A stretch of 64,000 bases of DNA, taken from IMG/VR virus record IMGVR_UViG_3300037127_000056, positions 32,001-96,000 of that record; one strand, 5' to 3'. The number at the start of each line of letters is the position of its first letter. Positions within the stretch are counted from its first letter, which is position 1. The stretch is from a virus (taxonomy: Duplodnaviria > Caudoviricetes). Of this stretch, positions 21,511 through 59,184 are shown piece by piece. The translations under genes and the position numbers were made by a program. The notes under the pieces were generated by a model. That model saw only the letters and a list, made by a program, of their open reading frames with translations, was not told where the DNA came from and made no database searches.

Positions 21511-21551
21511 GCCAAGATTGTACGTTTTCCCGTGTGATCCTCGTGGGTTAG

Positions 21552-21852
21552 CCGAAAGGGATCCACATAACAGTCCTTCTTCTTTCGTGTCTCTTCCCGT
21601 CCAGCCGCTGCGCTCCGACCCGAGGGCCATCGTTGTGGCCTCGGTGACATGGGTTCCCGTCTCATGTGACGCGTCTCGCGAGCCATGTCTTGTGAGCCCC
21701 TGTTCTCACCTCTATCCCTCATGCATCTACGCCATCACATCGAACGGCGCCACGCGCCGGAGACTGGACCGATCAAGGGTGAGGACAAGAGCTGAAATGA
21801 CGAAGGGAGAAAAAAGAAGAAGAAGAAGGACTGTTATGTGGATCCCTTTCGG
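21552..21852. repeat. Inverted-repeat-bounded non-coding element, copy 1
   Basis: 33-bp perfect IR CCGAAAGGGATCCACATAACAGTCCTTCTTCTT; core GCCATCACATCGAACGGCGCCACGCGCCGGAGACTGGACCGATCAAG. Confidence 0.95.
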
Positions 21853-21921
21853 GATGAGCCTTGCCCCATAAGGGTTTCCTGGGATTTGACACGCTCCCCG
21901 AAACCATGGCACGATGCGCCC

Positions 21922-22497
21922 ATGCATGAGCCAGTTCCCATCCGTTACGTCGCGCTGTTAGATCCCAAGATCGATCGTGTGAGGCCAACATTCGCCGCCG
22001 CCATTCTTGCCAATGATGCAGGTCATGGCGTCATCGTTCCGTCGGCTTCAAAGACCCGAGGGCAGCTCGATGCATTCTTCGAACGATGGGGACTCCCGAT
22101 TGGATGTACCTACAAGTGGGCCGCCATCGACCCGGGATGGGATACCCCGGTATGGATTGACGCGCCGGGAGTGTTTTCATCCATGGCGCTGGAGTTCATG
22201 AGTGTCCACCAGGCCCGGGTGTACGCGCCCCCCGCGAATTGGTTCACCGTGCTACGTATGCTAGAACCGGCATGCGTCAATCGCGCGTCCAAGAATGAGC
22301 GGTACAACGGTCTGATCCAATTGAGGAAAATCATGTACCCCGTGGTCATCCCGATGTGGTTGAACCGACACGCCGCCCGCATCGGGATATCGACTCGGAC
22401 CCGTGATTGGCAGACCGTTGTCATCGATGCGCTCTACGAGAGCGGATATTCGGTGCCGGAACAATGGGTGGCATGGCTCAACGAGAGACAGAGGTAG
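21922..22497 (+). CDS. Hypothetical protein
   Basis: TTGACA-N18-CACGAT-N6-ATG adjacent to element copy 1. Confidence 0.55.
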   Translation: MHEPVPIRYVALLDPKIDRVRPTFAAAILANDAGHGVIVPSASKTRGQLDAFFERWGLPIGCTYKWAAIDPGWDTPVWIDAPGVFSSMALEFMSVHQARVYAPPANWFTVLRMLEPACVNRASKNERYNGLIQLRKIMYPVVIPMWLNRHAARIGISTRTRDWQTVVIDALYESGYSVPEQWVAWLNERQR

Positions 22498-23114
22498 ATC
22501 TCTGCAAGCGATTGATCGATGCCGCCGACGGGTGGACGGCTTACCCAGAGGTCGGACGATGGGACATCGTCCTGGAACGGGACGGTATCACCGTTGGGGT
22601 TCAAGCCAAGCTTCAGTGCTCGTGGCAACTCTTGGACCAGGTCACGCGTTCCCGCCGGCGGGAAATCCCCAACCATCGGACCATCTTGATCCCGAAGTTC
22701 AACAAGCGGTTCATGCGATTCGCGCGCCGACTCGGTGTCGGAACATACACCGCGAGTGGGCTGGCAACGATGGCCGGGTTCAAGCCGCGGGGCCCATATC
22801 AAGAATCGGACATATGGCTGCCCGATGTTCCATCCCCAACGCCGGCGGGATCGCCGTCGCCGTCATCGTTGACACCGTGGCGACAAGCGGCGATCCGTCT
22901 ATGCATCCTTCTCGACCGGCAAGGCTTCCTCAGCGGCGCTGACTTCGCCTCTCATGGCGTCAATCCTCAGCGGTGGGTTACCCGGGGGTGGCTTGTGAAA
23001 GACGGGTGGTGGGCGGCTGAGGGGCGGAGGTGGCGACGCTACACCCGCGGACCGGCGGAGACGATGCCGGACACCGGATGGGACGTGATCCGGGACCAAC
23101 TCACGCCGGCTTGA
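22473..23114 (+). CDS. PD-(D/E)xK-like nuclease-fold phage protein
   Basis: ETEVDLC...AYPEVGRWDIVL...VGVQAKL. Confidence 0.55.
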   Translation: MAQRETEVDLCKRLIDAADGWTAYPEVGRWDIVLERDGITVGVQAKLQCSWQLLDQVTRSRRREIPNHRTILIPKFNKRFMRFARRLGVGTYTASGLATMAGFKPRGPYQESDIWLPDVPSPTPAGSPSPSSLTPWRQAAIRLCILLDRQGFLSGADFASHGVNPQRWVTRGWLVKDGWWAAEGRRWRRYTRGPAETMPDTGWDVIRDQLTPA

Positions 23115-24492
23115 ACCGGACGCCATCCCACACGATGACGTCTCCGGCTGTCGCGTCAATTCCATTGATGAACGCGGGCGGAATGATCATCGGATCGTCG
23201 TTGCACTGAGCCCATTCGACCACGAGGCCGCCGGGGTATCCAAACACCTTTGGCAGTGTGAGCCGAACTCTGGCCTGTTCCCCGGGTTCTGTCTCGATGT
23301 TGGGTGACCATTCCTGCCAGCGGGAATTGAGTGCGTACAACCGTTCCACACTGGTACGGTAGATGTGTTCGGCGGCAACGTATTCCGCATCGAGCCCATC
23401 CGAATCTCTCGACGCATGGGTGCCGGGGAGTAGGGCACGGCTCAGAGAATAGGTCATCGTAGCTTCGAACGTGTACAGCTGCGCGAGGTCATCCCGTACC
23501 TGTGGGTCCTGTAGTGGGGCAGGATCATTGATGAATGTTTCTTGAACCATGTAGTGATCCAAATGGAGATGCTCCAACAGTTGGGGCCATGCCCCGATGT
23601 TCTTGACCCACTTGGCGTGCTCCCAGTCATTCACGTCGCAGGGCGGGGCGACAACACGCTCGGCGATGCGATCAAGCCGGGCGTGTTCGTTGGTACGGAA
23701 AGTGCGGGGGAAGTCGGGGGACGATAGGAGATCCCAGGTGTCCCGACGCACCCACGTGGCACTCAGGCGGGCCAAGACACCGAGCGCGAACTGTTGGTCT
23801 TCTGGAAAACCGAGATAGAATCCGGTGAGGTCTTTCCACCGTCGGCCGAAGTTTGCGACCCGGATGTGTGTGTGTACTTCATACCCATCACCACTTTGTC
23901 TCAAGACAAGTATGGCCCCCGCATCTGGGGTGGCATCACGGGTGAACCACTCTGAGAAGAATCTGTCGATTCCGGGATCTTCGTCACTGCCGGTGTAGGC
24001 GATGATGCGAAGGTCTTTCGATGATGGGTGTTGCCATACCGGTTTCCCGAGATATTGGCCAGCGGAAACAAACCCCAGGTCTGGGAGCCGGTCGAGTGTC
24101 GATGCCCGCGCCTCCCATGGTGGGGTCATGATGCTGCGCATGGCGTCGGAAAGTAGATAATCGGGGTAATCACCCAAGCCGTTGCTAGCGACCTTCACAA
24201 GCGATGCGACACCACTGAGGCCCAATTTTTTGGCGTATACCAACGCGGCGCCGGCTTCGTGGAATTCTTCCATGCCGTTGCAGCCGTTCCTACCAAAGCA
24301 TGGAACCACGGCGCGGTAGGGGACTGCGCTAGTCCATTCACCCGATGGCAACATGTCGCCAGGAGAGATCTTGACGGAACCCAGAGGATGCACCCGGTCA
24401 TCCATGGTAATTGGTCGAAGGATGATACAGACAGAGTCGTCCCCGGGGCGGATCGCCCCAAAGAGACAGTCATATTTGTTGAAAGTACCCAT
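23101..24492 (-). CDS. Hypothetical protein
   Basis: Long ORF (~463 aa) with no recognised motif. Confidence 0.6.
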   Translation of the reverse strand: MGTFNKYDCLFGAIRPGDDSVCIILRPITMDDRVHPLGSVKISPGDMLPSGEWTSAVPYRAVVPCFGRNGCNGMEEFHEAGAALVYAKKLGLSGVASLVKVASNGLGDYPDYLLSDAMRSIMTPPWEARASTLDRLPDLGFVSAGQYLGKPVWQHPSSKDLRIIAYTGSDEDPGIDRFFSEWFTRDATPDAGAILVLRQSGDGYEVHTHIRVANFGRRWKDLTGFYLGFPEDQQFALGVLARLSATWVRRDTWDLLSSPDFPRTFRTNEHARLDRIAERVVAPPCDVNDWEHAKWVKNIGAWPQLLEHLHLDHYMVQETFINDPAPLQDPQVRDDLAQLYTFEATMTYSLSRALLPGTHASRDSDGLDAEYVAAEHIYRTSVERLYALNSRWQEWSPNIETEPGEQARVRLTLPKVFGYPGGLVVEWAQCNDDPMIIPPAFINGIDATAGDVIVWDGVRFKPA

Positions 24493-24598
24493 AGCAGCTG
24501 TGTAGCACGATTTTCGCGGACTCGTCAACGGGTGACGCGCGCAAAAATGTATGGCCCAAGCGTTGACATCCGGGGCGGCGTGTGTCAACGTTGTGAGC

Positions 24599-25332: not shown

Positions 25333-25396
25333 TGCCCGCGTGTGACACGATCCATATAACCCGGCGCAGTGATGCGCCCAAATCAAAGGAACGACA

Positions 25397-25741
25397 ATGA
25401 GTGACACAACGCCATTTCCAATGCCAAGCACCCCGACCGGACTGTGGGTCCAGCAAATCTTCCGCGATCGTGCTTCCCCCACCCTTGAAGCCCCTCATGA
25501 CCGAATCGCGGTGAAGTATATTTATGAGCTGCTCGGCGCCACCGAGGAGGAATGTACGGTGACGGCGGACACCATCATCGAAGAAGGACTGCGCGAGACG
25601 TTCGTCGATGCCGTGGAGTACGTTATTCGGAACGTCTTGCAGCTGAACTTGAAGCCAGAGGAATTCGTCGATCATCTGCGCCGGTACGCAAGCGACGGGA
25701 TTCCGAACGACCTCGACGAATCAGCTGATCGGGAGGATTGA
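25397..25741 (+). CDS. Small helical protein, tandem family member
   Basis: FPMPSTPTGLWVQQI...PHDRIA...LLG...TIIEEGLRETF; AAGGA RBS. Confidence 0.55.
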   Translation: MSDTTPFPMPSTPTGLWVQQIFRDRASPTLEAPHDRIAVKYIYELLGATEEECTVTADTIIEEGLRETFVDAVEYVIRNVLQLNLKPEEFVDHLRRYASDGIPNDLDESADRED

Positions 25742-26278
25742 CGTCAACACGTCGCGCCCATTGATCGTCACCACGGGGGCGTCGATGGTGATGCTGCCAC
25801 CCGCGGTGATCGATAGGTCTGCGGTGGCGCCGATGTCCACCTTCAACCCGTCGCGTGTGAGACGGAAGCCGCCACCGGTTTCACGATCGATCAATGCGGC
25901 GGTCTCGTTTTTGTCATCAAGTATGATGGCGTATCGCTTCCTGGCAATCACCCAGATCCGGGGTGACCCGCCTTCGGTTTCTGCAGGTACCGATGTCGTC
26001 GGCCACGAACCGCCGTAGTAGTAACCCTCATCGGGATTCCCGAGGAAGAATCTCACTACGACATCGGATCCCTTTTCGGGGACCATCCAAGCTCCGATAC
26101 CTGGCCCGGCACCCATCGCCGCTGGGTACAGCCATCCTGTCGCCGGCTGATCGACGATGCCATCAATCGTGGCACGGATACGACCAAGGCCGCGGGGATC
26201 TTCATTGTCGAACACGACGGCGGCGTAGTCACCGTTCAGATCGAGGCGGTCGCCTTGGTCATCGAATGTTGGTTCCAT
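25721..26278 (-). CDS. Baseplate central spike (gpV/gp5 OB-fold)
   Basis: DNEDPRGLGRIRA...GW...GAWMVPEKGSDVVVRFFLGNPDEGYYYGG; C-terminal ITIDAPVVTING. Confidence 0.88.
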   Translation of the reverse strand: MEPTFDDQGDRLDLNGDYAAVVFDNEDPRGLGRIRATIDGIVDQPATGWLYPAAMGAGPGIGAWMVPEKGSDVVVRFFLGNPDEGYYYGGSWPTTSVPAETEGGSPRIWVIARKRYAIILDDKNETAALIDRETGGGFRLTRDGLKVDIGATADLSITAGGSITIDAPVVTINGRDVLTSILPIS

Positions 26279-26319: not shown

Positions 26320-26682
26320 ATGATCCGACTGACGAATGTACGGCGCCCTCCGGCACCGATCGAAATGGCGGGGCCGGCGACCACCGTCGTAAAGCGTCTC
26401 AGGTCGCAGGCTACCAAAACACAGTCCCGACAGAGGGCACTCTCTGGCCGTTCCGCAAAGCGGGGTGTCCGTCGAGAGCAAGTCCACGTCCCGGTGGGGA
26501 TCCGACTGAATCCCGGCGTGCCGGTCGAGGTACCCGACGAATGGCAGCACACCGCGGACTTCAAGCGGCTCGTGGTTCGCCTCCGTTGGGTGCGCGCAGA
26601 GTTCATCCCAGACGCGGATGATTCGGCTCCAAAGGCATCCCCGGTGAAGAAGTCTCGGAAGCGGAATAAGGGGGGCAACTGA
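26320..26682 (+). CDS. Small basic protein preceding the sheath
   Basis: Stop overlaps the sheath start; TAAACT-N7-ATG. Confidence 0.55.
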   Translation: MIRLTNVRRPPAPIEMAGPATTVVKRLRSQATKTQSRQRALSGRSAKRGVRREQVHVPVGIRLNPGVPVEVPDEWQHTADFKRLVVRLRWVRAEFIPDADDSAPKASPVKKSRKRNKGGN

Positions 26683-28886
26683 TGTCGAACCAATATCTTT
26701 CGCCTGGTGTCTACGCCAGGGAAGCTCAGCCGACACGGCGAGCATTCGATCCCGTCCAGACTTCGGTGGCCGGATTCGTCGGTGTCACGGAGCGCGGGCC
26801 TTTCACGCCCACCGAGGTCGTCGGTTTCGATGAGTTCGAGCGCATCTTCGGTGGGTTCATCACCGACAGCGAACTCCCACAATCGGTCCTGGCGTTCTTC
26901 CTCGGGGGCGGACAACGCGCCATCATCACTCGGGTGGTTCACTACACCGATGTTCTTGACCCGGCGACCAAGACGTCCGCAGCCGCTACCTTGAATCTGC
27001 TCACGGCAAGCGGTGCTCCCACGGCCGCCGTGATTGACGGAACCAATCCCGGACCATTCGACTTTGAACCCGGTGATCAGGTTGCGATTGATGTCGATGG
27101 TGGCGGTGCCGTTCTCGCAACGTTCGATGCCGCGCCCGGTGCCCAGACGTCGGTCAACTCCGAGGACTACGTCCTCGCCGATCTTCAGACCCTTGACGTA
27201 AGCGTTGACGGCGGTCTGGCGCAGACCATCACGTTCCTCACCGCGGAGTTCGCCAACATCGCGCTCGCGAAATCGGCCGAGGTCGCGGCGGTCATCAATG
27301 CCAAGATCTCGGGGGCGTTCGCCAGCGGTGCCGGTGGCGTCGTGACCATCACGTCGGATACTCGGGGCACGGCGTCAAGCGTCGAGATTACCGGTGGTAC
27401 CGCGGCGGCGGCGTTCGCATTCCCGGCGGGTGCTGCTGTTGGTACCGGTGACGTCGCGGATATCGATGCCGTGACGGGCGCTGAGGTCAAGACGGTCGTC
27501 GAAGCCGATGTTCCTGGTACCACTGTGACGGTCCTTGGTTCCGGGGCGGTGCGGCTGGAGAGCAACACCACGGGCCCGGCGTCCACGCTTCAGGTCGCCA
27601 GCTCCGCGATCCAGATCGCCTTGGGTTGGACCACCGCTACGGTAAGCGGGACGTCCGGTGCTGCGGCGCCAACGGTACAGATTGACGGCAAGACCGACGG
27701 TGAGTATGCCAACACCTTGCAGGTGCGCATCGAAGATGCCACCAACGGGGACGCCGAGTTCTTCAACCTCTCGGTGGAAGACAACGGGCTCGTTCTCGAA
27801 CGGTTCGCCAATCTCACCATGGACCCCCTGAATAGCGGGTTCGTTGAGGCGGCGCTTACCGCGAGCGACTACATCTCGGCGACTGACCTCGAACTGGCAG
27901 CGGCGGACACCCGCCCCGCCAACGGGTTGCTGGGACCACTCACCGGCGGTGATGATGGTCTCGTGGGTCTTGCCGATACCGACTTTCTCGGTGGTCGCAG
28001 CGCCAATGGTGCTACCGGTCTCCGGGTACTTGACCAGACTGTGACGTCCATCTTGTGTGTCCCTGGCCAGACGTCGGCGGTACTCCAGAATGGGATCGTC
28101 GAATACTGCGAGGTGATTCGAGGCGGCGCCATCTTCGGGATCTTGGATCCGCCGGCGGGTCTCAATGAGGATGAGGTCGTCACTCACTTCAAGGCGACCA
28201 ACGCCCTCACCGGGCTCAGCGAATTCGTGATCACCTACTGGCCGCGCCCGCTCATCATCAATCCCGATGAGGTGGTGTTTGGGAATGCCGCCAACATCGC
28301 GATCCCGGTGAGTGGTGCTGTTGCCGGGCGCTATGCCGCCACGGACAACCTGTTTCCCGGTGGCATCTACCAGTCCCCGGCGGGTGACAACGAGCGCGGG
28401 CAACTCCGGGGCGTCGTCGGCGTCGAGGAACCGCGGGTCCGCGAGCGGGCGGTTCAAGACAAGGTCTACCCCGAGCTGATCAACCCCATCACGATCAACG
28501 ACGACGGCGTCGTGTACATCAATGGGACGAAGACCTTGCGCGCCGATAGCAATTTCCCGCGGGTGGCTCAGCGTCGCGGGGCGATTTTCATCGAGCAAAC
28601 CATCATCAAGGGCTTGACCCCGTTCTTGCACTTCCCCAATGACCAAAGCCTCCGTATCGAGGTCACGCGGGTCGTGGAACAGTTCTTGCTTTCGCAGCTC
28701 AAGATCGATGCCTTCCGGAGCAAGGATCCATCCACCGCGTACATCGTCAACTTCGGGGAGGCACTCAACCCCCCGGACAAGATCGAGGCCGGCGAGTTGA
28801 ACGGCAAGATTGGCCTCGCGTTCGCCACACCCGCGGACTTCATCATCATCGAGTTCTCACGCTTGTCGGCGGACTCCACGATCTAA
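26682..28886 (+). CDS. Contractile tail sheath protein
   Basis: YLSPGVYARE, VAGFVGVTERGP, FFLGGG, YWPR, SGAVAGRYA, SPAG, INPI, PADFIIIEF. Confidence 0.95.
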   Translation: MSNQYLSPGVYAREAQPTRRAFDPVQTSVAGFVGVTERGPFTPTEVVGFDEFERIFGGFITDSELPQSVLAFFLGGGQRAIITRVVHYTDVLDPATKTSAAATLNLLTASGAPTAAVIDGTNPGPFDFEPGDQVAIDVDGGGAVLATFDAAPGAQTSVNSEDYVLADLQTLDVSVDGGLAQTITFLTAEFANIALAKSAEVAAVINAKISGAFASGAGGVVTITSDTRGTASSVEITGGTAAAAFAFPAGAAVGTGDVADIDAVTGAEVKTVVEADVPGTTVTVLGSGAVRLESNTTGPASTLQVASSAIQIALGWTTATVSGTSGAAAPTVQIDGKTDGEYANTLQVRIEDATNGDAEFFNLSVEDNGLVLERFANLTMDPLNSGFVEAALTASDYISATDLELAAADTRPANGLLGPLTGGDDGLVGLADTDFLGGRSANGATGLRVLDQTVTSILCVPGQTSAVLQNGIVEYCEVIRGGAIFGILDPPAGLNEDEVVTHFKATNALTGLSEFVITYWPRPLIINPDEVVFGNAANIAIPVSGAVAGRYAATDNLFPGGIYQSPAGDNERGQLRGVVGVEEPRVRERAVQDKVYPELINPITINDDGVVYINGTKTLRADSNFPRVAQRRGAIFIEQTIIKGLTPFLHFPNDQSLRIEVTRVVEQFLLSQLKIDAFRSKDPSTAYIVNFGEALNPPDKIEAGELNGKIGLAFATPADFIIIEFSRLSADSTI

Positions 28887-28934
28887 CCCCACGGTTTCCC
28901 GCCGGCGGGAAACGCCACGGGGAGAGGAGACAAC

Positions 28935-29441
28935 ATGCCCATCACTTCACCTGGAGCCGCGACGACCTTCCACGATTCTTTCCGATTCATCGTGCAGATC
29001 GAAGGCGTGACGCGTGCGAAATTCCGTAGCGTGTCGGAAATCACAATGACCCACGAGGACATCGATCACTGGGAGGGCGGGCGCGCCATCGCGTACAAGT
29101 CCCCGGGCCGCGTGACCGTTGACGACGTTACCTTGGAGCGGGGGGTCATCGACAACGACGACGACCTCTACTTCTGGTTCATCACCACGACCGATGTCAA
29201 CGTCGATTCCCCGCTCGGTGCTGGCATCGGTACCGGTCTTGGTCTCGATGACGAAGCCTACAAGCGGGACGTCGATATCGTGCAGCTCAAGCGGGACGGC
29301 ACGCCGCGGAAGCGGATTCGTTTGGTCAACGCCTATCCCAAAACGGTGACTCTGGGGTCGATGAACAACGAAGAGGACGCCAAGACCATCGAGTCGGTCG
29401 TCCTGCGCTACGACTACCCCCGCGTCATTCCGGTTCAGTAG
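28935..29441 (+). CDS. Tail tube protein (T4 gp19-like)
   Basis: FRFIVQIEG...WEGG...KSPGRVTVDDVTLERG...NAYPK...IESVVLRYD. Confidence 0.92.
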   Translation: MPITSPGAATTFHDSFRFIVQIEGVTRAKFRSVSEITMTHEDIDHWEGGRAIAYKSPGRVTVDDVTLERGVIDNDDDLYFWFITTTDVNVDSPLGAGIGTGLGLDDEAYKRDVDIVQLKRDGTPRKRIRLVNAYPKTVTLGSMNNEEDAKTIESVVLRYDYPRVIPVQ

Positions 29442-31777: not shown

Positions 31778-33871
31778 ATGAGTAACAAACGCTACATCAA
31801 AGAGCGGGACCTTCCGGCAGAACTCGAACCCATCGACGCCGTCACGATCGGCTATGGTCCCCAACTGACGCGCGCCGCGGATGCGTTGGTCCGCGGCCAG
31901 CACGTCTTGATCTCAACGGACTTGATGGTCTCGACGTTCGTATCACAGATCATCTCGGACCGTCTCAAGAATCAAGACCAGAGTCTCGCGGACCGCATCC
32001 GCTACATCGACTCGGCACCCCTACCAGAGATGGAAGGTGCCGCACCGTCTCAGGTCATGATGGCAAAGATTCGAATGGCCATCAACAACCCGCCCGCGGA
32101 CGATTCGCCACCGATCATCATGATCCCGTTCCTCGGTGTGTTGGTGTCCGGCTCCGGCAGCCTCACCATGGAAGCTCGGCAGTTCGCGCAGCTCGTGGGC
32201 GAGAACCCCGAGGAAGCGATCTGGTTCGCGTGCATGGACCGGAACATCGTCATCCCGGATTCGTTGTCGAAGATCTTTGGCCTCCATGAGCGTTGCGAGG
32301 GTATCGCCCGTGAGCGGTTGCCGCAACTGGTGACCCGCGAGCACGCCCGCAAGTTCTCGGCGGCACCGAATCGGTTCGACCCATTCGGCCTTCACCAGCT
32401 CGTGTCGGGCCTCAACCCGTTTTCTCTGATCAAGGCCCTCGACGCCGTCAACGTGGCGCCGTACATCGATCCCGATGGGGCGTACGACCAGCTCGCGGAA
32501 GCGGCCACCGACGCCGATGTCGAGCGCCCCGACATCGGTCTCGACGACGACATCGGCGGATACCAAGACGTCAAGGACAAGCTCAACGACGAGATCATCT
32601 CGTTCCTGGAGCGGCTCGACGAAATCGATGACCCCGTGGAGTACAAAAAGACCGAATCGATGATCCCCCGCGGCATCCTCCTACATGGCCCCCCGGGCAC
32701 CGGCAAGACGCTGTTCGCCAAAGCGCTCGCCACGGCCATCAATGGCGTCTGCATCGTCGTCAACGGCCCGGAGCTGAAGTCCAAGTTCGTTGGCGAGTCG
32801 GAAGAAAACATCCGACGGGTTTTCCGTCGAGCCCGCCGCAATGCACCCGCAGTGATCGTGTTCGACGAGATCGATAGCCTCGCCCCGGCTCGGGACATGT
32901 ACTCCGGCGGCAACGGGGTCACCCACGCCATGGTCAATCAGCTACTCACCGAACTCGACGGGTTCCGCAAGGATGAACTGGTGTTCGTCATCGGCACCAC
33001 AAACTTCCCGTCATCCCTGGACCCCGCCCTGCTTCGGGACGGACGGCTCGGACATCAGATCTATGTCGGGTACCCCGATGACGACGCCCGCCGCGCGATC
33101 CTGAATCTGTACAACGACAAGCAAGAGCTGGAGATCGATGACGACGCCATGACGACTCTTGTCCGGCGCACCGCAGGTCCAACTCCCAACACCGGCACCC
33201 GATACACCGGGGCTGCACTCGCCGGCCTGTGTAGCGCCCTGGCTCGCTACCGCATCCGCGAGCGCGTCAAAGGGGTGACCACGAAGGAACACATCGACGC
33301 CCTCTTCGATTCGATGGTCGATCGCCCGGATCTCAACGAGGGGGAGCGTCGTACCGTCGCCGTCCACGAAGCCGGTCATGCCGTCGTCGCACTGCACCTG
33401 GAGCACGCGCCGCCGATCAGCCGTGTGACGATCGAGGGGGATGTCTCCGGCGCTCTGGGCTACGTGGCGTTCGATGACCCCAAGGACAAGTATGTCCAGA
33501 CCAAGCCCGCACTACTCGACCGGATATGCACCATGCTCGGTGGCCGGGCCGCTGAGGAGGTTGTACTCAAGGTGGTGTGCGCCGGTGCCAGCGACGACAT
33601 CGCCCGCGCCACGCGACTGGCCACCGCCATGGTCACTCAACTGGGGATGGGTGCAAGCCTCGCAATGACTGGCGACACCAACGTCCCGGCGAGTGTCAGT
33701 GAAGCCCGCCACGCCGAGATCGAAGGTATCCTCAAGGCGCAGCTCACGCGCGCCAAGGGCCTGATCGAAACCTACGCCGCGGAGCACGCCGGCATGGTCG
33801 AGGTCCTACTCAACAACGGGTCCTACGAGGTCGGCGGCGACGGTGAGCTGCGCGTCGAGAAGGGGGCGTAA
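31778..33871 (+). CDS. Soluble FtsH-like AAA+ ATPase / M41 metalloprotease (no TM helices)
   Basis: GPPGTGKT, VFDEID, TNFPSSLDPALLRDGRL, HEAGH, LGGRAAEEV, GASDDI; ~250-aa hydrophilic N-terminus. Confidence 0.92.
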   Translation: MSNKRYIKERDLPAELEPIDAVTIGYGPQLTRAADALVRGQHVLISTDLMVSTFVSQIISDRLKNQDQSLADRIRYIDSAPLPEMEGAAPSQVMMAKIRMAINNPPADDSPPIIMIPFLGVLVSGSGSLTMEARQFAQLVGENPEEAIWFACMDRNIVIPDSLSKIFGLHERCEGIARERLPQLVTREHARKFSAAPNRFDPFGLHQLVSGLNPFSLIKALDAVNVAPYIDPDGAYDQLAEAATDADVERPDIGLDDDIGGYQDVKDKLNDEIISFLERLDEIDDPVEYKKTESMIPRGILLHGPPGTGKTLFAKALATAINGVCIVVNGPELKSKFVGESEENIRRVFRRARRNAPAVIVFDEIDSLAPARDMYSGGNGVTHAMVNQLLTELDGFRKDELVFVIGTTNFPSSLDPALLRDGRLGHQIYVGYPDDDARRAILNLYNDKQELEIDDDAMTTLVRRTAGPTPNTGTRYTGAALAGLCSALARYRIRERVKGVTTKEHIDALFDSMVDRPDLNEGERRTVAVHEAGHAVVALHLEHAPPISRVTIEGDVSGALGYVAFDDPKDKYVQTKPALLDRICTMLGGRAAEEVVLKVVCAGASDDIARATRLATAMVTQLGMGASLAMTGDTNVPASVSEARHAEIEGILKAQLTRAKGLIETYAAEHAGMVEVLLNNGSYEVGGDGELRVEKGA

Positions 33872-39133: not shown

Positions 39134-39202
39134 GGCGGTCATGGTAGCCCGCGGTGGGTGGATGCGTCAAGGGCCAGGAAACCCGCGTCGTTGCTGGCTC
39201 AT

Positions 39203-39499: not shown

Positions 39500-39604
39500 T
39501 AACTCATCGACATCACAAGGGAAATCGCCACATTTCGCCCTCATCACCGACGCCCCCTACCACAAGGCTTGACATTGCCCCACCGATCGCGGTACAACGC
39601 CGAC

Positions 39605-46430: not shown

Positions 46431-46435
46431 GAGGC

Positions 46436-46867: not shown

Positions 46868-47196
46868 GACTGATTCGCGAGGACGAGCCACGTCGCCACC
46901 GACTCGCGGTCTTCGAACTGAGACATATTGGTTTGCGTGAGGCCGATGCGAACGGTCTGGTTGTTGATCGTGGACGTTGCAGTCGCAACGATGACCGCAT
47001 GGTCCCCCACGACTCCGGGGTAATTGCCGGAGACATCAACCGCCATCTGAACCGGCGCGGTGGGCGTGACGTTCCGAACCGTCCTGCGAAAGGCGGGCTT
47101 GAAGTTGTTGTGGAAGCTAGAAGCGACCTGGTTCCATGCGCAATGGGTGGAGAAGCGGCCGTTGGTCTTGCTGGTGGTGGTCTTGAAAGTGGTCAT
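46864..47196 (-). CDS. Small hypothetical protein, probably early
   Basis: Follows class-2 leader copy B. Confidence 0.6.
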   Translation of the reverse strand: MTTFKTTTSKTNGRFSTHCAWNQVASSFHNNFKPAFRRTVRNVTPTAPVQMAVDVSGNYPGVVGDHAVIVATATSTINNQTVRIGLTQTNMSQFEDRESVATWLVLANQS

Positions 47197-47290
47197 TGTT
47201 GGCGTCCGGTGTTTGGTGTGGCGGGGTTTCTTCCGTCCCCTTGATTTTCTTTATAGCAAGGCTAACTCCGCCCGTCTACAAAAAACGACA
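47197..47290 (-). promoter_or_regulatory. Leadered promoter, class 2 (copy B)
   Basis: GCTATAAAGAAAATCAAGGGGACGGAAGAAACCCC...ACAATGACC. Confidence 0.65.
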
Positions 47291-47362
47291 CATTCTTCGA
47301 ACTTTTTTCCCCCGTGATTTGCAAGATTTGGCCCGTTATATGCACATCTTATAATCGATGGC

Positions 47363-48823
47363 ATGCGAATTGCAAAGCAGATCCCCGAATCCGATGCGGA
47401 CATCGGGGAGCGTCGAGAAGCCGCCGATGAGCGAGCCGAAGGGTTCCCCGAGATCGAAGTCCTTGAAGACCAAGGGCTGAGCGCGGCGGAAGATGACCCT
47501 CTCGACGAAGCTCTATGGGGTGACCCCGTCAACCTCCGGTTCCCGCTGGCCTACCGCGGCGACACCGAGCCGGACCGTGAGCGGTCGTCAAATGCCCGGT
47601 CGCGGTTCAAAGGGCCGGACGGGGCGGATGCTTACGAGCGCGACGAAACTAAAGGGGTCGTCCACACCCGGATCGTGCAAGCGGAGATCGATGCCGGCGT
47701 CGAGCCCGGCTACGACCCGCAGGACCCACTAGATCGTCTGCTGAGTCCGCAAGTCAAACGACAACTGGGAGTTGAAAAGATGCATTACGGCGACGCGGTT
47801 CCATCTCCGTCTATCCCAACCCATGACGACAGCCCAGAGCACAAGCTCTACACCCTTGTCGAGCGCCACGACCGATACCCAGACATCGCGATACTCGATG
47901 GCATGCCCGCCGCGCGGCGCGATGAGCCGCTGTGTGAGGACCTCTGGGGCGATCCCGTCAACCTGATTTTCCCGCTGGCGGGACGCCACGAGGACTGGCC
48001 CAACGCCATCCACGCCAACACGGCGCGCGAGTGCTTCAAGGATGAGGATTCTTGGCGCAACGCGATGATCTACCCCGATGACCTGAGCCGGGCGTGTGTG
48101 CATGAGCGCATCGTCCGGGCCCAGATCGCCGCGGGAATGACCCCTGAGATTGATCCCGAGGATCCATTGGACTGCCTTCTGCCGGCGGACCTTTTGTATG
48201 GGGCCTCTGATGTTGACTCGGCATACCGGAGGAAGTCTATGCCACTGAATTTCGAGGCCAAACTGGCCGCCCTCGCGCCGGAGCCCGCTACCCCGGCGAA
48301 ACCCACCCTGGACAGTCTCCGTGAGACCCTGGCGTCGTTGGCGAAGTCGGCGGACGGGGGGCTCAAGGACGGGCTGACCAAAGCCCTCGCCGATCTCGAT
48401 GTCATCCGCAAGGCGTTTGATTCGATTGAAGGCGTAGGCTCATTCACCGAGACCTATGGTCCCGGCGGTATGGCTGAGCCGGAGATGAAGCTCACCGACC
48501 CCGATCCGGTACCCCCGGTGATCGACGATCACAATCAAGAGGATGAGCTGGCCCCGGACGCGCAGTTCGATGTCGATGATCCCCGGCTGCGGCAGCGTGA
48601 AATCCACGGCATCGCGACCAACGATGTTGCGGTCGTTCCGTGGGAAGCGAATGCCCGCACCGAAGCCAACCCCGGTCGGCCGGATGCGACCTCGGTGATC
48701 CCGATGGTTGGTCCGTCGGGTGCCGAGTTCGCCCCAGTCGATGGTGTCGCAAAGGCGTTCGGCGATTTCGAAAAGTTGCCCGCCCTTGGCTACGACTCGC
48801 AGATCCTCGGAGCGAGCAAGTAA
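47363..48823 (+). CDS. Head-associated acidic protein with a tandemly duplicated domain
   Basis: Two copies of LWGDPVNLxFPLA...N.AR..FK...VH.RIV.A.I.AG..P..DP.DPLD.LL; first gene of the head operon. Confidence 0.7.
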   Translation: MRIAKQIPESDADIGERREAADERAEGFPEIEVLEDQGLSAAEDDPLDEALWGDPVNLRFPLAYRGDTEPDRERSSNARSRFKGPDGADAYERDETKGVVHTRIVQAEIDAGVEPGYDPQDPLDRLLSPQVKRQLGVEKMHYGDAVPSPSIPTHDDSPEHKLYTLVERHDRYPDIAILDGMPAARRDEPLCEDLWGDPVNLIFPLAGRHEDWPNAIHANTARECFKDEDSWRNAMIYPDDLSRACVHERIVRAQIAAGMTPEIDPEDPLDCLLPADLLYGASDVDSAYRRKSMPLNFEAKLAALAPEPATPAKPTLDSLRETLASLAKSADGGLKDGLTKALADLDVIRKAFDSIEGVGSFTETYGPGGMAEPEMKLTDPDPVPPVIDDHNQEDELAPDAQFDVDDPRLRQREIHGIATNDVAVVPWEANARTEANPGRPDATSVIPMVGPSGAEFAPVDGVAKAFGDFEKLPALGYDSQILGASK

Positions 48824-50338
48824 GTGCGCTTGCACGTCCACACATTCGTCGATCCATTTGACGGAACGACGAACACGACGGCCGCGGAGATGGGGCAGTC
48901 GCACGTCCACACCGGGACATGGTCCAATGGCGAGACATACGTCACTTCGATGGCGGACGATGTTCCCAATCATGGACATCACGTCGTGTTCCCTGAGACC
49001 GGTGAGACTCTGGTGTCTAGCTACTCCCTGACCGTCATTCCTGGAGGCGAAACCATGAAATCCTATCCCCATGTCTTGACGTGGGAGGCCGTGGCAGCGA
49101 ACTACCTGCCGGACGATGGGTCATCGGGGATGCCGGAATCTCTTGAAGCCGACATCCCCGGTCGATACCAGTTCTGGAAGTGCGAGGCTACCGAAGACAA
49201 ACTCGCGGTTCGGCGCGCTCTCGTCGAATCCGGCATTGTCGCGGAAAGCAACATCCGCATCGTGACCGTCAAGTCCGGGAACGAGACCGTCGGTGAGGAA
49301 CTGCACCGCGTCGTCTTCAAAGAGACGTCGGCGATGGTCCTGCCTTCGCCGGAGCCTGGAGCCCCGGTCGTTCCTACATTCAAGTCGGATCTCACCCTGG
49401 CCGCGGATGTCGCCGGTCTTGAGAACCCCTTGGTGATGGACACCAACATCGTGTCCCTGTTCGGACTTGATGAAACTCTACGGCGCGCGGAAGCCGGCGC
49501 CCGAGACTGGCTTGTCCAGATTGATCCCGACTCCCCCGCATTCGACGCCGCTCTCAAGCGCTATGACGCTCCGACGCTGTATGCCCTCAAGCACAGTGAC
49601 GCCGCGGTGTATCTCGCAAGCGGTATCCCCGATGACGGTGATGTCCGATGGTTGATGAAAGCGGATACCGATGCCGTCACCAACCTGCTCTGCCGACAGA
49701 ACCTTTCACCCGTCGAGATTCTCCAGCGGGCGGACAATGAGGTCATCCCGGAGCGGGTCGCGGACCTTGCGGAACACGTCTCCAGCATCGCCGCCAAGCG
49801 AGCCGGTTGGTCTGACTACGATGCCAGGGTTGCAACCCGTGCCGTGGTCACTATCCAACGGGAACTCGCCAAGGGTGCGACCGCCGACGCTGCGACCCTG
49901 CAGTCTCTGGGTGTGGACGTCCGCAAGGCGGTGTCCGACCTCGCGGAGCGGGTGCAGGAAATCAGCATCCACAAAGCCGATCGTCCCGATGAGGAACGCA
50001 TCGTCTACGGCATCGTCCTCGAACCGGACACCGTTGACCTCCAGGGTGATGTCGTCACCGCGGACACCATCCGCAAGGCGGCACACGACTACATGGAGCA
50101 CTCCGGTGCCATCGGTCTCCAGCATGAGGAGATCATCACCGGCAAGGCCAAGATCCTGGAGACGTTCATCGCCCCCGTGGACTTCGACGTCGGCGGCCGT
50201 GTGATCCGCAAGGGTAGTTGGGTGATGTGCCAGCGGATCGTCGATGACGGCCTCTGGAAAGCCGTCAAAGCCGGCGACATCACTGGCTTTTCCATCGGGG
50301 GCCGTGGAACCCGCGAGCCCGTAGGAGGTGTCGCGTGA
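48824..50338 (+). CDS. XkdF-like prohead serine protease (C-terminal domain) with long N-terminal extension
   Basis: EERIVYGIVLEPDTVDLQGD...IGLQHE...GSWVM...LWKAVKAGDITGFSIGG. Confidence 0.88.
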   Translation: MRLHVHTFVDPFDGTTNTTAAEMGQSHVHTGTWSNGETYVTSMADDVPNHGHHVVFPETGETLVSSYSLTVIPGGETMKSYPHVLTWEAVAANYLPDDGSSGMPESLEADIPGRYQFWKCEATEDKLAVRRALVESGIVAESNIRIVTVKSGNETVGEELHRVVFKETSAMVLPSPEPGAPVVPTFKSDLTLAADVAGLENPLVMDTNIVSLFGLDETLRRAEAGARDWLVQIDPDSPAFDAALKRYDAPTLYALKHSDAAVYLASGIPDDGDVRWLMKADTDAVTNLLCRQNLSPVEILQRADNEVIPERVADLAEHVSSIAAKRAGWSDYDARVATRAVVTIQRELAKGATADAATLQSLGVDVRKAVSDLAERVQEISIHKADRPDEERIVYGIVLEPDTVDLQGDVVTADTIRKAAHDYMEHSGAIGLQHEEIITGKAKILETFIAPVDFDVGGRVIRKGSWVMCQRIVDDGLWKAVKAGDITGFSIGGRGTREPVGGVA

Positions 50339-51285
50339 ACAAAGCTCGAACGAATCGCCGGGCCCGCAAGGCCCAGAACAAACTGAAGAACCTCACGGTT
50401 CAGGAGGTGTCGATCGTGGATCGTCCCGCAAATGACCACCCGTTTCATCTGACCAAGTCCGAGACCCCCGTACAGGTGGACGGGGATAGCTTGGTCATCG
50501 ACCGTTCCGCATCGGCAGCCGCAACCGCCGCTCTCGTCGCGGGACAACACTTCAGCGCCGCCATCACGAAGATGCTTACGGTTTCCGAGCATGGGCGCCA
50601 GCAGGTGCATTCCTACCTCGGTGAGCTGTACATGCGCATCGATGAGCTGTGCAACATCCTAGCCAATGTCGATGGCAACCCCATGGGGGGCACCCTGGAC
50701 TCCGCGATCGGACAAGAGCTTGCGGAAATCGCCGGGATTTTCATGAAGCTGGCCACCGCGTTTGGTGCGACTTCGATCGTCGAGCCGGCTGCAAAGGCAG
50801 ATGCCAGTGACGACGCCGACGTGTCCAAGGCCGGTCGCAAGATGAGCAAGATGAATGCGTCTCGGTTGCGTGATGCCATCGTGCTTCTGAACGAGCTGGC
50901 GCAGACCGTCATGCCGGATGAGATCTCGGGTATGTACGAGAAGATGTACGGCGGGAAGTTCAAAAAGTCGGACGACGCGAGTCCCGCCGGCGGGAATCTC
51001 CCGGCCTACATCCCCGGCGCCGATGTCGCAGCCGCGCTTGCTGATACCGTCTCGAAGTTCGACAACGGTCTCAGTTCTACACTCGATCATGTGGTGGCTC
51101 TTACTCAGCGTGTGGATGCCCTGGAAGCCCGACCGGTTGCGAAAGCGGCCCCGGCGCGCCGGATCAACACCCATGCACCCAGCAATGCCATCGACACCGC
51201 GGATGCTGCCCCCCGGCATGCCCGTGCCACCGAACTCGATGCCAAAGTCCCCGCGTTGGGCTGGGACTCGGAACTGGCCCGCTAG
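50335..51285 (+). CDS. Putative scaffold protein
   Basis: LKNLTVQEVSIVDRPAN N-terminus, KAGRKMSKMN..RL; lies between protease and capsid. Confidence 0.7.
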   Translation: MNKARTNRRARKAQNKLKNLTVQEVSIVDRPANDHPFHLTKSETPVQVDGDSLVIDRSASAAATAALVAGQHFSAAITKMLTVSEHGRQQVHSYLGELYMRIDELCNILANVDGNPMGGTLDSAIGQELAEIAGIFMKLATAFGATSIVEPAAKADASDDADVSKAGRKMSKMNASRLRDAIVLLNELAQTVMPDEISGMYEKMYGGKFKKSDDASPAGGNLPAYIPGADVAAALADTVSKFDNGLSSTLDHVVALTQRVDALEARPVAKAAPARRINTHAPSNAIDTADAAPRHARATELDAKVPALGWDSELAR

Positions 51286-51315
51286 GCCACAACCCTTACC
51301 ACGAGGTATAGCAAT

Positions 51316-52275
51316 ATGAGTATCAACAACCTGGCCCAGCGAGAGCCCGAAGCGATCAAGAAGGCCGACCTCCGTCTCAGCAACATCCTGGATCCTCTGG
51401 GTGAGCTTGTCCCGGCTCAGGCGAACAACTTCGTCCGCCTGATGCAGAAGGAATCCGTGCTCTTGGGTGCGGCCAATGTCGAGGTTCTGCGCGCCAAGAA
51501 GCAGCGCGTCAACAAGGTGCGGTTCGCGCAACGGATCCTCCGCCGTGGCGTCGAGGGGCAGGCCCTGTCCCAGGCCGACCGCAGTGCCCCGGACTTCACC
51601 GTCGCGGAGTTCGACACCCAGCTGATGAAGGCTGAGGTCAACCTTACTCAGGAAGTGCTGGAGGACAACATCGAGGGGGATCGGTTCATCTCGACTCTCC
51701 TGGAGCTGATGTCCGGCGCCATCGCCCGCGACCTCGAAGATGTCGTGGTCAACGGTGATACCAGTATCGTCGATCCGACCAATCTCCTGGGCACCTTCGA
51801 CGGTATGCTGGTTTCCGCGACCACCAACGTCACCAACGCCCTGGGCTCCGTGTTCGATCAGAACGTCGCCAACGCGATGATCCAGACCATGCCGGTGGAG
51901 TTCCGCAAGAACCGTGCCGCGCAGCGCTTCATGACGGATCACAACTCCGATCAGAACGCCCGCAATACCCAGGCCACTCGTGCCACCGAGTTGGGCGATG
52001 ACCAGCTGACCAACTACAACGCCGTGCGCTGGCACGGCATCAACCTCATGCCGATCGATGTCTGGCCGAGCAACTTGGGTGGCGGTCTCGATGAGACCAA
52101 TGTCATCCTCACCGCACTGCAGAATGTTGGCGTCGGCATCTGGCGCCGCTTCAAAATCACTCGCGAAGTGGACAACCGCGCGGACACCGTCTCCTGGATT
52201 GCGTCGGTTCGGGCGGATTTCAAGTACATCGAAGAAACCGCGGTCGTGAAGGCGATCCAGGTTCAGAGCCTGTAA
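51316..52275 (+). CDS. Major capsid protein (HK97 fold, XkdG-like)
   Basis: GELVPAQANNF, EVLEDNIEG, ARDLEDVVVNGDT, FDGML, RADFKYIEETAVVK. Confidence 0.92.
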   Translation: MSINNLAQREPEAIKKADLRLSNILDPLGELVPAQANNFVRLMQKESVLLGAANVEVLRAKKQRVNKVRFAQRILRRGVEGQALSQADRSAPDFTVAEFDTQLMKAEVNLTQEVLEDNIEGDRFISTLLELMSGAIARDLEDVVVNGDTSIVDPTNLLGTFDGMLVSATTNVTNALGSVFDQNVANAMIQTMPVEFRKNRAAQRFMTDHNSDQNARNTQATRATELGDDQLTNYNAVRWHGINLMPIDVWPSNLGGGLDETNVILTALQNVGVGIWRRFKITREVDNRADTVSWIASVRADFKYIEETAVVKAIQVQSL

Positions 52276-52287
52276 GGAGGACTCAGT

Positions 52288-52626
52288 ATGGCACTTTCTA
52301 CTCCCGCTACTGCGCCACTGCGCGCGCATCAATCGCCAGAACTCCAGGTCTACTGCGACGTCATCGAGTTCCCTGGGGACGACGACTACGTCACCGGTGG
52401 TACCCCCGAGTTCCAGTCGTTCGTCCGGGCCGCGGTGGGTCACAACGTCACCGTGATCGCGATCATCGATGTCGGCAGCAACACCGCCGGTACTCCAGCG
52501 CTGTTCGAGCCGGTCTATGACCAGGCCAACGACACCCTCATCGTGCTGGACCCGGCGCGAGTCGAGGTGGCCGCGACGACCGACCTCAGCACCACGACCT
52601 TCCGCCTCGCGGTACTTTCCAAGTAG
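52288..52626 (+). CDS. Putative head decoration protein
   Basis: AAGGAGG RBS after the capsid gene; YVTGG...EVAATTDLS. Confidence 0.6.
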   Translation: MALSTPATAPLRAHQSPELQVYCDVIEFPGDDDYVTGGTPEFQSFVRAAVGHNVTVIAIIDVGSNTAGTPALFEPVYDQANDTLIVLDPARVEVAATTDLSTTTFRLAVLSK

Positions 52627-53627: not shown

Positions 53628-53634
53628 GTCGGAA

Positions 53635-54927: not shown

Positions 54928-54980
54928 GACCGTTACACTAGCGCATCCGCCGGCAACCCGCAAGATCTAAACTCGACTTT

Positions 54981-57005: not shown

Positions 57006-57006
57006 G

Positions 57007-57654
57007 ATGGTCTCTGAATGGCACAACCGCGCCGTGGCTCGACTCCGGGCGTATGAATGGCTCATCGACCACGCGGGCGTCCGCGACGTGTTGACGACGA
57101 CTCTCGATGCTGCCGTTGAGCAAGGCATCGAAGGTTCCGTAGAGGTCGCGGACGCCCTTGCTGTTCCATTGGGTCCACCGAATTGGAACGTCCGGCCCGA
57201 TGTCGTGATGCGGACCATATTGGCAGCGGTTTCAGAAGCCGCAATGGCCGAGAGTGTCGGTGGTGACACGATGGTCGGCTTTGTCGTTGGAACGAACCTC
57301 CAGCTCTATATCGATGCCAACGATGCCGGCGCCGAGATGCAAATCACTCAGGCCATCTACCACCACTTGCACCGAGCTGGGTTCGCAACGCATGACATCG
57401 GGATCCGTATCGGAGAAATCCCAACGGCGTGCGAACGATGGACATTCTCTTGGCGCGGGCGCCCGCAGGTAACGCATGTCCTCGAACTCAGCCGATGGTT
57501 GTCCCATTATTCGGCATTTGCTGTCATCGTGGGCGATACGGACACTGCATGGGTGGGTGAGGTTTTGTGTTCTGATCCGCCCGCACTAGATGGTGACGCT
57601 AGCGGCGCCCGTAACCCCCGTCACCTTCTCACGATAGACGACGCGGATGAGTAG
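57007..57654 (+). CDS. Hypothetical protein
   Basis: 215-aa ORF directly after the baseplate gene. Confidence 0.5.
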   Translation: MVSEWHNRAVARLRAYEWLIDHAGVRDVLTTTLDAAVEQGIEGSVEVADALAVPLGPPNWNVRPDVVMRTILAAVSEAAMAESVGGDTMVGFVVGTNLQLYIDANDAGAEMQITQAIYHHLHRAGFATHDIGIRIGEIPTACERWTFSWRGRPQVTHVLELSRWLSHYSAFAVIVGDTDTAWVGEVLCSDPPALDGDASGARNPRHLLTIDDADE

Positions 57655-57966
57655 GCCATCGCCGTCGCCTTGAACATCCACGGCCTCCGTGGCGACGGAC
57701 AAGACCTGTACAGAATCCATCCATTCCGTGAGGGCTTCTTGGACCAAGGCTCCGGCAAGGGCGGGGAGCCCATCGTCATTGGGCAAAAACTTCAAGGTGT
57801 GCAACCGTGATCCGAACCGTGCGTTCCACGGCAGCTCCCCTTGTCGCGTGCCTAGGACCTGGCCGATGTGCTCGGCAATCAAGGTCGAGCCAGTCTCGGA
57901 ATCGATGTCGGCGGCCCCGCGTCGGAAGGTGCTGGAGATGCCGGTTTGCTGGTTGCGGAGTGCCAT
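57586..57966 (-). CDS. Baseplate gp25/GPW-family protein
   Basis: IGQVLGTRQGELPWNARFGSRL...EALTEW. Confidence 0.85.
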   Translation of the reverse strand: MALRNQQTGISSTFRRGAADIDSETGSTLIAEHIGQVLGTRQGELPWNARFGSRLHTLKFLPNDDGLPALAGALVQEALTEWMDSVQVLSVATEAVDVQGDGDGLLIRVVYREKVTGVTGAASVTI

Positions 57967-57997
57967 GAGGCAATTGTAGGATCGGGTCAAAAAGAAT

Positions 57998-58026
57998 GCC
58001 CCCAATGAGACTATCTCATTGGGGGC
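57998..58026 (-). terminator. Hairpin, probable minus-strand terminator
   Basis: GCCCCCAATGAGA-3nt-TCTCATTGGGGGC followed on the minus strand by ATTCTTTTT. Confidence 0.55.
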
Positions 58027-58140
58027 ATCATGACTCAGTCGGTCGGCTTACCGGGCTTCTCCTTGCGCGGGGGCGGGGGAGGCGGCGGCGGGGGTGGGAA
58101 GTCGGGATCGGGGTCCGTTGGGGTGGCATGGTTCTTGTAG

Positions 58141-58743
58141 TCATTCATCATCATCGTTACTCCTTTGCTTGCGCTTGAAGCGCTGAAATCGGTTCGTCCA
58201 ATCGTGCATCGCGGATGCCCATCGAACATCCATCTCCTTACGCCAGTCCGTGAGATTATTGAGCTTGTGCTCCAAGAGCTGGATCTTGGATTCCATTTCG
58301 TGGATCCTGGCGTTGAACTTTGAGATCTCATTGATCTTGTCGAACATCGTGTCGAACCGCCCCTCCAGTTTCTGGAAGCGCAGCTCGACGTCGCTCTTGA
58401 GCGCTCCAATGGCTTGCGCGTTGTCGCTGGGGGTGAGGTACCCGCCGCTGAGAAACGCCGCCACAATCGCTCCCAGGACGGCCCCATAGCGCGTCCACGT
58501 ATGTTGGATGAACACCTGGCCCGGTGATGGCTCCCCATCCGTTGGGTGTTGCCCCGGAGGAACGGTGGCGGCTCTAGGCAGCCGCTCATGCATCCCCTCA
58601 TTATCACCGACACTCTGGGCTCGTTCCCGCGGCCCCCACCCATCATACCCATGCATGCTGTTGAGTGTATGGTCTTTCCGTAACCATCGTCGCGCATTGA
58701 GCTTACAACGCGGGCACAACGAAGGTGGATCGGTGGGGCGCAT
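58141..58743 (-). CDS. Membrane-anchored coiled-coil protein
   Basis: YGAVLGAIVAAFLSGGYL then heptads; start uncertain. Confidence 0.55.
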   Translation of the reverse strand: MRPTDPPSLCPRCKLNARRWLRKDHTLNSMHGYDGWGPRERAQSVGDNEGMHERLPRAATVPPGQHPTDGEPSPGQVFIQHTWTRYGAVLGAIVAAFLSGGYLTPSDNAQAIGALKSDVELRFQKLEGRFDTMFDKINEISKFNARIHEMESKIQLLEHKLNNLTDWRKEMDVRWASAMHDWTNRFQRFKRKQRSNDDDE

Positions 58744-58802
58744 GTGAAGTATATGGTACCGGCATCGAAAAGGGTGATTTCCCTTGTGATGTCGATGGGT
58801 TA

Positions 58803-59032
58803 CCCGAAAGGGATCCACATAACGGTCCTTTCTCTCTCTCCTCTTCTTCTTCCTCTCTCTCAGCTCTTGCCCCAGCTCTTGATCGATCCAGTCTCCGGCG
58901 CGTGGCGCCGTTCAATGTGATGGCGCATGGGTGAGAGGGTCGGAGGTGAGGACGATGACCCGCGGGACGGAGCGAAGCGACGAGAGGAGGACACAAGAGA
59001 AGAAAAGGACTGTTATGTGGATCCCTTTCGGG
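58803..59032. repeat. Inverted-repeat-bounded non-coding element, copy 3 (shorter, core flipped)
   Basis: Same IR (1 mismatch) and core; about 70 bp shorter. Confidence 0.93.
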
Positions 59033-59184
59033 GGCTACCTCAAGCATCATCGCCATACAACTCCATCATGGCCATGAGATGCGTTCTATCGCCGCCGACA
59101 TCGTCCCGGTGGTTGGGTACCAAGAAGGCAGACCATCGCCACCACGCCCGGCTCAACACGTCTTATGGGATACCACGACCGGCA

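Follow-up and report, generated by a model that had tools for sequence, protein, structure and literature searches.

Replication origins that lie inside the gene of their own initiator have been described in phages lambda (PMC6022878) and SPP1 (PMC6316719). The Rep protein of ColE2 joins an archaeo-eukaryotic primase (AEP) domain, PriCT and a helix-turn-helix (HTH) without an NTPase, and both unwinds and primes its own origin (PMC5862659, PMC4980987). In oriV of RSF1010, two near-identical hairpin sites, ssiA and ssiB, lie on opposite strands, with an AEP and helix-bundle primase, RepB', adjoining (PMC8567376, PMC13037366). Here we describe five related elements, E0 to E4, in the 116,337-bp record of an uncultured virus (Duplodnaviria, Caudoviricetes; IMGVR_UViG_3300037127_000056), three of which lie in the 64-kb window that was analysed (genome positions 32001-96000). 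We propose that they are likely to be dispersed, homologous, bidirectional replication origins served by the predicted primase-initiator of the phage itself; the virus probably starts copying its DNA at several places.

The record is classed as linear and 100% complete (CheckV), and its gene content (sheath, tube, tape measure, portal, protease and capsid genes) is that of a myophage, which our preferred explanation labels lytic. A preliminary description of the window had listed three copies of an inverted-repeat element. The positions of their arms bear this out, and a genome-wide search brought the total to ten arms, two in each of five elements:

E0, genome 8541 to about 8815: within the primase gene, with direct arms; outside the window
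E1, genome 53552-53852: the first copy of the preliminary description
E2, genome 71204-71498: the second copy
E3, genome 90804-91031: the third copy
E4, genome 101313-101590: outside the window

Every element carries two arms, A and B, 180-250 bp apart, which lie on opposite strands in E1-E4 and on the same strand in E0. The copies match one another far above chance (BLAST E 2e-65 to 1e-16), and conservation is concentrated in the 25-bp arm, which has just two single changes across all ten occurrences; outside it, copies share about 73-88% identity and differ by indels.

E0 is located in frame within a 956-aa open reading frame (ORF; genome 7456-10326, minus strand), at residues 500-600 or so, in the linker; the same protein is called identically in a second assembly. 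The predicted domain order is an inactive AEP-fold domain, an active AEP primase, a PriCT/PriX-like bundle and a winged helix. The AEP primase domain (residues 255-430) has intact catalytic motifs I-III, with the invariant AEP residues D-x-D, H and R: D307, D309 and H349 are invariant in six homologues and D382 in five. Profile searches identify it as AEP-TOTE in Pfam (E 7e-4, below the cut-off) and as primase in PHROG (E 5e-4), and its best Foldseek matches are CAPP prim-pols (E 7e-4). Residues 1-250 (genome 9577-10326, minus strand) are also modelled as an AEP fold (TM 0.70 to AEP-TOTE models), in which inspection found no DxD or H motif. The model of residues 614-822 shows a helical bundle followed by a winged helix: its residues 1-79 match best chain C of the archaeal PriSLX primase, which we take to be PriX, at a middling Z of 7.3, and residues 95-209 match winged helices, again with middling Z. 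The C-terminal part also falls in a PriCT_1 cluster at 0.89 in the Atlas. No NTPase family matches the protein in Pfam, where AEP-TOTE matches are the only ones and the ColE2 Rep family (Replicase) is not among them; we therefore regard it as working like ColE2 Rep rather than as a member of that family.

Distant homologues have the same design; the linker measures about 180 aa here versus about 30-60 aa in most of them. One homologue (P0125) has a long linker of its own, which is unrelated and shows no similarity (p 0.92). The two arms of E0 are identical DNA read in different frames and are direct, and since they are conserved nonetheless, the constraint acts on the DNA, as expected of a DNA-level site and not of a pairing stem. 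At genome 8702-8728, the hairpin block conserved in the other copies gives way to three tandem 9-bp GC repeats, which can still form a stem of 6 bp and a loop of 3 nt in the equivalent place. The arms of E0 additionally share 12 tract bases, a weak hint of recent copying.

The second line of evidence is strand bias, which the preliminary description had suggested checking by GC skew. Raw cumulative GC skew has its five main minima at genome positions 9084, 53081, 70474, 88754 and 100180, each no more than 2.1 kb from an element. To take out the influence of gene orientation and amino-acid composition, scoring was confined to synonymous positions, with codon-family means subtracted and E0 itself left out. 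A model with origins at the five elements scored 939. Of 20,000 random placements of five points, one reached this value; rotating the set by more than 3 kb never did. The complete set outscores every subset (E0 alone reaches 295, and dropping any copy lowers the fit), and a free five-point fit places the switches at 9, 51, 70, 85 and 105 kb. The bias is present in plus-strand genes alone (p 0.003), in minus-strand genes alone (p 0.001) and in genes longer than 300 aa (p 0.003), and it persists after removal of 3 kb around each copy (p 0.0004) and with GC3 and length as covariates (t 3.7). It holds separately for fourfold and purine twofold sites and is marginal at pyrimidine twofold sites; T-A skew at fourfold sites gave no signal. 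On the predicted leading strand G exceeds C, G exceeds A and T exceeds C, and such an excess is the usual signature of replication. The copies differ in the strength of the switch, which is strong at E0 and E1, moderate at E2 and weak at the remaining two, E3 and E4. In three complete tail-sheath relatives, the skew forms one arc or runs in one direction throughout. No dispersed repeat occurs in one of these (G003), and the self-matches listed for the other two are end-region or tandem repeats.

Each element is built of two modules. Arm A is followed by a pyrimidine tract, a mini-hairpin word and the inner core, while arm B consists of the same 25-bp site, a pyrimidine tract and a short core of its own. 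The layout given in the preliminary description (inverted repeat, CT-rich tract, core, AG-rich tract, inverted repeat) is indeed present in each of its three copies, with 22-25 of 25 nt of the inner tract being C or T, and its conserved core word and hairpin block of about 48 nt correspond to the mini-hairpin word and to a 47-nt block containing a 6-bp stem with a 3-nt loop. Every arm opens with the mini-hairpin CCGAAAGG, and the inner word, of GCGNAGC type with a variable loop base, is found in all five copies and only once elsewhere in the genome. The window features are as follows:

21526-21551, plus strand: E1 flank A, also in E2, E3 and E4 and weakly similar to the primase coding sequence beside E0; the virion gene 21016-21510 starts 7 nt from its -10-like box
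21552-21576, plus strand: E1 arm A, near-invariant 25-bp site beginning CCGAAAGG, a putative initiator-binding or priming site
21577-21601, plus strand: E1 arm-A pyrimidine tract (22/25 C/T), a putative unwinding or primer-template stretch
21606-21615, minus strand: E1 mini-hairpin word of GCGNAGC type
21624-21689, plus strand: E1 inner core, with a small hairpin (21624-21640) and an invariant 18-bp block (21672-21689); common to E0, E2 and E4, deleted in E3
21731-21777, plus strand: E1 47-nt block, in which a GC stem closed by a 3-nt loop (to 21759) precedes the arm-B core (21761-21777)
21803-21852, minus strand: E1 arm B, second 25-bp site (21828-21852) with its pyrimidine tract
21853-21921, plus strand: E1 flank B, of which 21853-21882 is common to E2 and E4; -35 box (21886-21891) and -10-like box of an outward promoter, probably leaderless, for gene 21922-22497
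39141-39203, minus strand: E2 flank B, outward sigma-70-type promoter (39170-39141) for gene 38573-39142
39204-39498, minus strand: E2, in the opposite orientation to E1; it comprises arm B at 39204-39228, the arm-B core at 39290-39306, the hairpin block at 39308-39336, the mini-hairpin at 39438-39447 and arm A at 39474-39498; the core of E2 remains an open frame resembling the primase linker
39499-39524, minus strand: E2 flank A, near-identical to the E3 flank; -35 box (39569-39574) for gene 39605-40180
58778-58803, plus strand: E3 flank A, joined to arm B and not to arm A, through a flip of the core or an exchange of flanks at the arm
58804-59031, minus strand: E3; its left arm, arm B (58804-58828), has one A>G change and is followed by the arm-B core at 58878-58894, the hairpin block at 58896-58924, the mini-hairpin at 58970-58979 and arm A at 59007-59031

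Homology continues for 30-45 bp beyond the inverted repeats, as flanks A and B, and the repeats are thus internal sites rather than the ends of the element. The copies are mosaics: E1 is oriented opposite to E2 and E3, E3 is a short copy with an inner deletion of about 55-70 bp and a core flipped relative to flank A, and E1 and E4, which share a 14-15 bp insertion, are called sister copies. An assembly from a second sample has the same arrangement on the arm-A side of E3, and two other assemblies terminate inside E3, as expected at a repeat. As the preliminary description had noted, E1 and E2 occupy intergenic regions between divergent genes and share an outward flank with a -35 box; outward promoters are present in both flanks of E1, E2 and E4. 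In the genes beside E1-E4, 6-9 nt separate a -10-like box from the start codon that follows it, and their mRNAs are, judging from this spacing, probably leaderless.

These features suggest a mechanism in which the PriCT and winged-helix module would bind the 25-bp arms and melt the adjoining pyrimidine/purine tracts, as ColE2 Rep does, whereupon the AEP domain would lay primers on the opened strands beside the mini-hairpins, in the manner of RepB' on ssiA and ssiB. A host helicase and polymerase III, together with the clamp-like and DnaQ-like proteins of the phage, would then extend forks in both directions. In E1-E4, the order of hairpin, site and pyrimidine tract on opposite strands would yield two outward primers. 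For E0, either the arms would be binding sites at which helicases are loaded in both directions, or its arm B has been reversed only recently. The intergenic copies most likely arose by duplication of the in-gene origin with arm B reversed; the mosaic copies and the flipped core of E3 show that sequence is traded at the arms, most likely through recombination.

Like the origins proposed here, that of lambda fires in both directions and has a strand-asymmetric purine tract. That origin is likewise embedded in frame in its initiator gene, O, but exists as a single copy with four iterons, O is not a primase and P is required (PMC6022878). SPP1 resembles the present phage in having one origin within the initiator gene, a similar intergenic origin, and repeats beside an unwinding tract (oriL and oriR; PMC6316719). 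It differs in having two copies, AT-rich unwinding elements, a gp38 initiator that acts with a loader and a DnaB helicase, and a unidirectional oriL, whereas here there are five copies, purine/pyrimidine tracts in GC-rich DNA, a predicted AEP primase-initiator, no DnaB and a bidirectional skew. Set against such initiator-gene origins, the phage has the in-frame copy and the polarity switch, the latter weak for E3 and E4 alone; each copy has two near-invariant 25-bp arms with pyrimidine tracts, only two repeats and no AT-rich element. Since no phage protein matches PF03796, the module is not of the SPP1 type. ColE2 Rep, which is initiator, origin-melter and primase in one, shares with the phage protein the combination of AEP, PriCT and HTH and the lack of a helicase domain, and by analogy we predict the same three roles here. 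Unlike ColE2, with its one small unidirectional origin on a small plasmid, the phage has an additional inactive AEP-fold domain, a winged helix, a candidate origin within the gene and five two-armed candidate origins.

As for RSF1010, its opposed-site geometry fits E1-E4, in which priming is putative, and not E0, with both arms on one strand. The mini-hairpin CCGAAAGG is among the listed stable DNA mini-hairpins, and those of GCGNAGC type are frequent at phage origins (PMC13037366). RSF1010 ssiA contains a similar one, CCGAAGG, where the phage arms have CCGAAAGG (PMC13037366, PMC8567376). RSF1010 differs in its separate RepC initiator, iterons, RepA helicase and single origin; RepC, RepA and iterons do not appear among the Pfam, PHROG and NCBIfam matches listed for the phage, although the RepC and RepA models were not searched directly. 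Several origins spread across a large viral genome are also a feature of T4 (oriA-G), where they have little sequence in common and the best-studied ones work by R-loops, unlike those proposed here (PMC3016281). The homologous regions (hrs) of baculoviruses are dispersed homologous palindromic origins that also affect transcription, built in these insect viruses from arrays of 30-bp palindromes (PMC6669502). The five elements thus work like a combination of an SPP1- or lambda-like in-gene origin, a ColE2-like initiator and RSF1010-like opposed sites, and are a member of none of these classes.

Several observations weigh against this interpretation. Taken singly, E3 and E4 have weak local slopes (z of about 1 or below), and the strongest, symmetric switch is at E0, which a simple model of one outward primer per arm does not explain because the arms there are direct. 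The skew test assumes circular or concatemeric replication although the record is classed as linear, and the tests were run on the same DNA in which the pattern was first spotted. No clear homologous element was found in any relative, and the domain assignments predicted for the 956-aa protein rest on weak scores. Finally, the phage encodes no DnaB-type helicase, as judged by PF03796; the fork helicase is consequently assumed to be that of the host or one of three SF2 helicases of the phage.

The strand bias also bears on an alternative in which only E0 is an origin and E1-E4 act as initiator-binding decoys, switch sites or divergent promoter hubs. Such decoys or switch sites would titrate the initiator or stall forks for a theta-to-sigma switch, as has been proposed for SPP1 oriR (PMC6316719, PMC3485210), and the outward promoters in the flanks, as well as the location of the largest skew switch at E0, are in keeping with such a division. 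It is unlikely, however: E0 alone fits far worse than all five (295 versus 939), the fit falls when any copy is dropped, and stall sites would produce skew maxima rather than minima. The promoters sit outside the conserved arms, and since the bias holds within each gene strand, it is not explained by the direction of transcription. The mosaic copies, the flipped E3 core and the flipped arm B of E0 could instead reflect hubs at which a recombinase uses the inverted repeats to flip the core or segments between copies, an idea to which the scattering of the virion operon, with two of its genes beginning right beside E1 and E4, might be added. Yet searches of the phage turned up neither a tyrosine or serine recombinase nor a transposase of the Y1 or DDE type nor a telomere resolvase, the second sample keeps the arrangement on the arm-A side of E3, five sites are too few for the many breaks in the operon, and neither the skew switches nor the in-frame primase copy would be explained, which makes this reading quite improbable. 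The recombination or regulatory role raised in the preliminary description, consistent with the mosaicism and the outward promoters and lacking a dedicated recombinase, is probably a secondary property.

The inverted repeats had further suggested a long terminal stem closing an undescribed structured non-coding RNA (ncRNA) or single-stranded DNA (ssDNA). Whole copies do fold strongly owing to the repeats (copy 1 as ssDNA, z -7.8), and small hairpins recur in the core, one of which is lengthened by three pairs in E4. E0 nevertheless retains its arms where no stem can form. The cores fold no better than shuffled sequences except in E4 (copy 1 without arms as RNA, z -0.1), the covariation term is +0.62 (from four sequences only), the arm changes in E3 and E4 are uncompensated, and the tracts are scarcely more alike within copies than between them. 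With no inward promoter, and no Rfam match at the gathering score (the lone sub-threshold match is a generic long hairpin), an ncRNA is very improbable. Size (230-300 bp) and terminal inverted repeats would also suit miniature inverted-repeat transposable elements (MITEs), non-autonomous transposons inserted five times and once in frame into the primase, whose linker is longer than in most homologues. This is hardly credible and largely refuted: as the preliminary description had observed, there is no target-site duplication and no evident transposase, none of the phage proteins matching PF01609, PF01797, PF00589 or PF00239; the flanks past the repeats are common to the copies instead of unrelated, the E0 arms are direct, and a pattern scan of 185,579 prokaryote genomes found no copy. 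A hairpin-telomere (protelomerase) site was discarded, there being no telomere resolvase gene and the arms lying 180-250 bp apart rather than in an uninterrupted palindrome. Likenesses to an integron attC core, a dif half-site and a DnaA box were dropped for want of a second half-site, extrahelical bases or a recombinase. Replication origins, also among the candidates of the preliminary description, are favored by the in-gene copy, the strand-bias switches and the mini-hairpins of the type found in priming signals.

Relatives of the element proved scarce. Pattern scans for arm or core gave no match in viral, metagenome and genome collections, a looser arm pattern returned only terminator-like chance matches in AT-rich DNA, and comparable inverted-repeat elements were not found at 80 tail-sheath loci. 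Primase searches recovered eight distant proteins and, when extended, no additional member of this architecture; the primase type was not found in 46 tail-sheath relatives, in a search without a positive control. In the contig of the closest homologue (L008), a purine tract and an arm-like sequence lie at the very start, some 1.1 kb upstream of the gene. This is the best match to arm plus tract in 1.27 Mb, but narrowly (p 0.013 before correction for nine regions), and is marginal and only suggestive of a related element. Another homologue, carried by a deltaproteobacterial prophage, has beside it a 325-bp element (L007:12271-12595) that is bounded by perfect 18-bp inverted repeats and inserted between a promoter and its start codon; with a 6-bp direct repeat outside its ends and no significant similarity to E0-E4 (p 0.65), it is likely an unrelated MITE. 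In a third case (L006:11992-16264), Type IV-like CRISPR genes (a faint Csf1 match and Cas6) directly follow the primase homologue.

The phage also encodes a sigma-70 factor, a DnaQ-like exonuclease, a processivity-factor match, a thymidine kinase and a ribonucleotide reductase. A probable sliding-clamp gene, assigned by inspection, adjoins the sigma-70 gene (genome 15331-17895). MoxR, vWA and FtsH-like genes of an FtsH ternary system are present at window 244-3458 and 31778-33871, and residues 215-299 of the 840-aa terminase (window 61064-63586) form a homing-endonuclease domain, which probably marks an intein. A 14-bp palindrome occurs 25 times in the window (419-63628) and 43 times in the genome, about once per 2.7 kb, frequently at gene ends or in promoters. 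It is absent from the three complete sheath relatives; in L005, from a phage with the same head genes, a copy is located upstream of the primase homologue.

The virion operon, a single colinear block in relatives, is dispersed here on both strands (window 7898-11047, 16466-17344, 21016-21510, 25721-26278, 26682-29441, 44688-52626, 57586-57966 and 61064-63586). Two of its genes, window 21016-21510 and genome 100163-101260, are near neighbours in the block of the relatives and here start 40-50 nt from E1 and E4, respectively. Because these sister copies each directly precede one of the two genes, it is conceivable, albeit doubtful, that this tailed phage replicates in the manner of a chromosome with several origins, the five firing bidirectionally under a single helicase-less primase-initiator, and that duplication of segments bearing an origin, with subsequent gene loss, helped to break up the operon.

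Multi-origin phages known so far have either two similar origins with different jobs, as in SPP1, or several unrelated R-loop origins, as in T4. If the interpretation of E0-E4 as origins is true, five homologous origins whose bidirectional use has left a genome-wide mutational record would provide a compact model of origin multiplication. It would also supply an as yet uncharacterised primase-initiator with a precisely defined candidate target, the 25-bp arm, available in both direct and inverted pairs, making the opening and priming of DNA by helicase-less AEP initiators directly testable.

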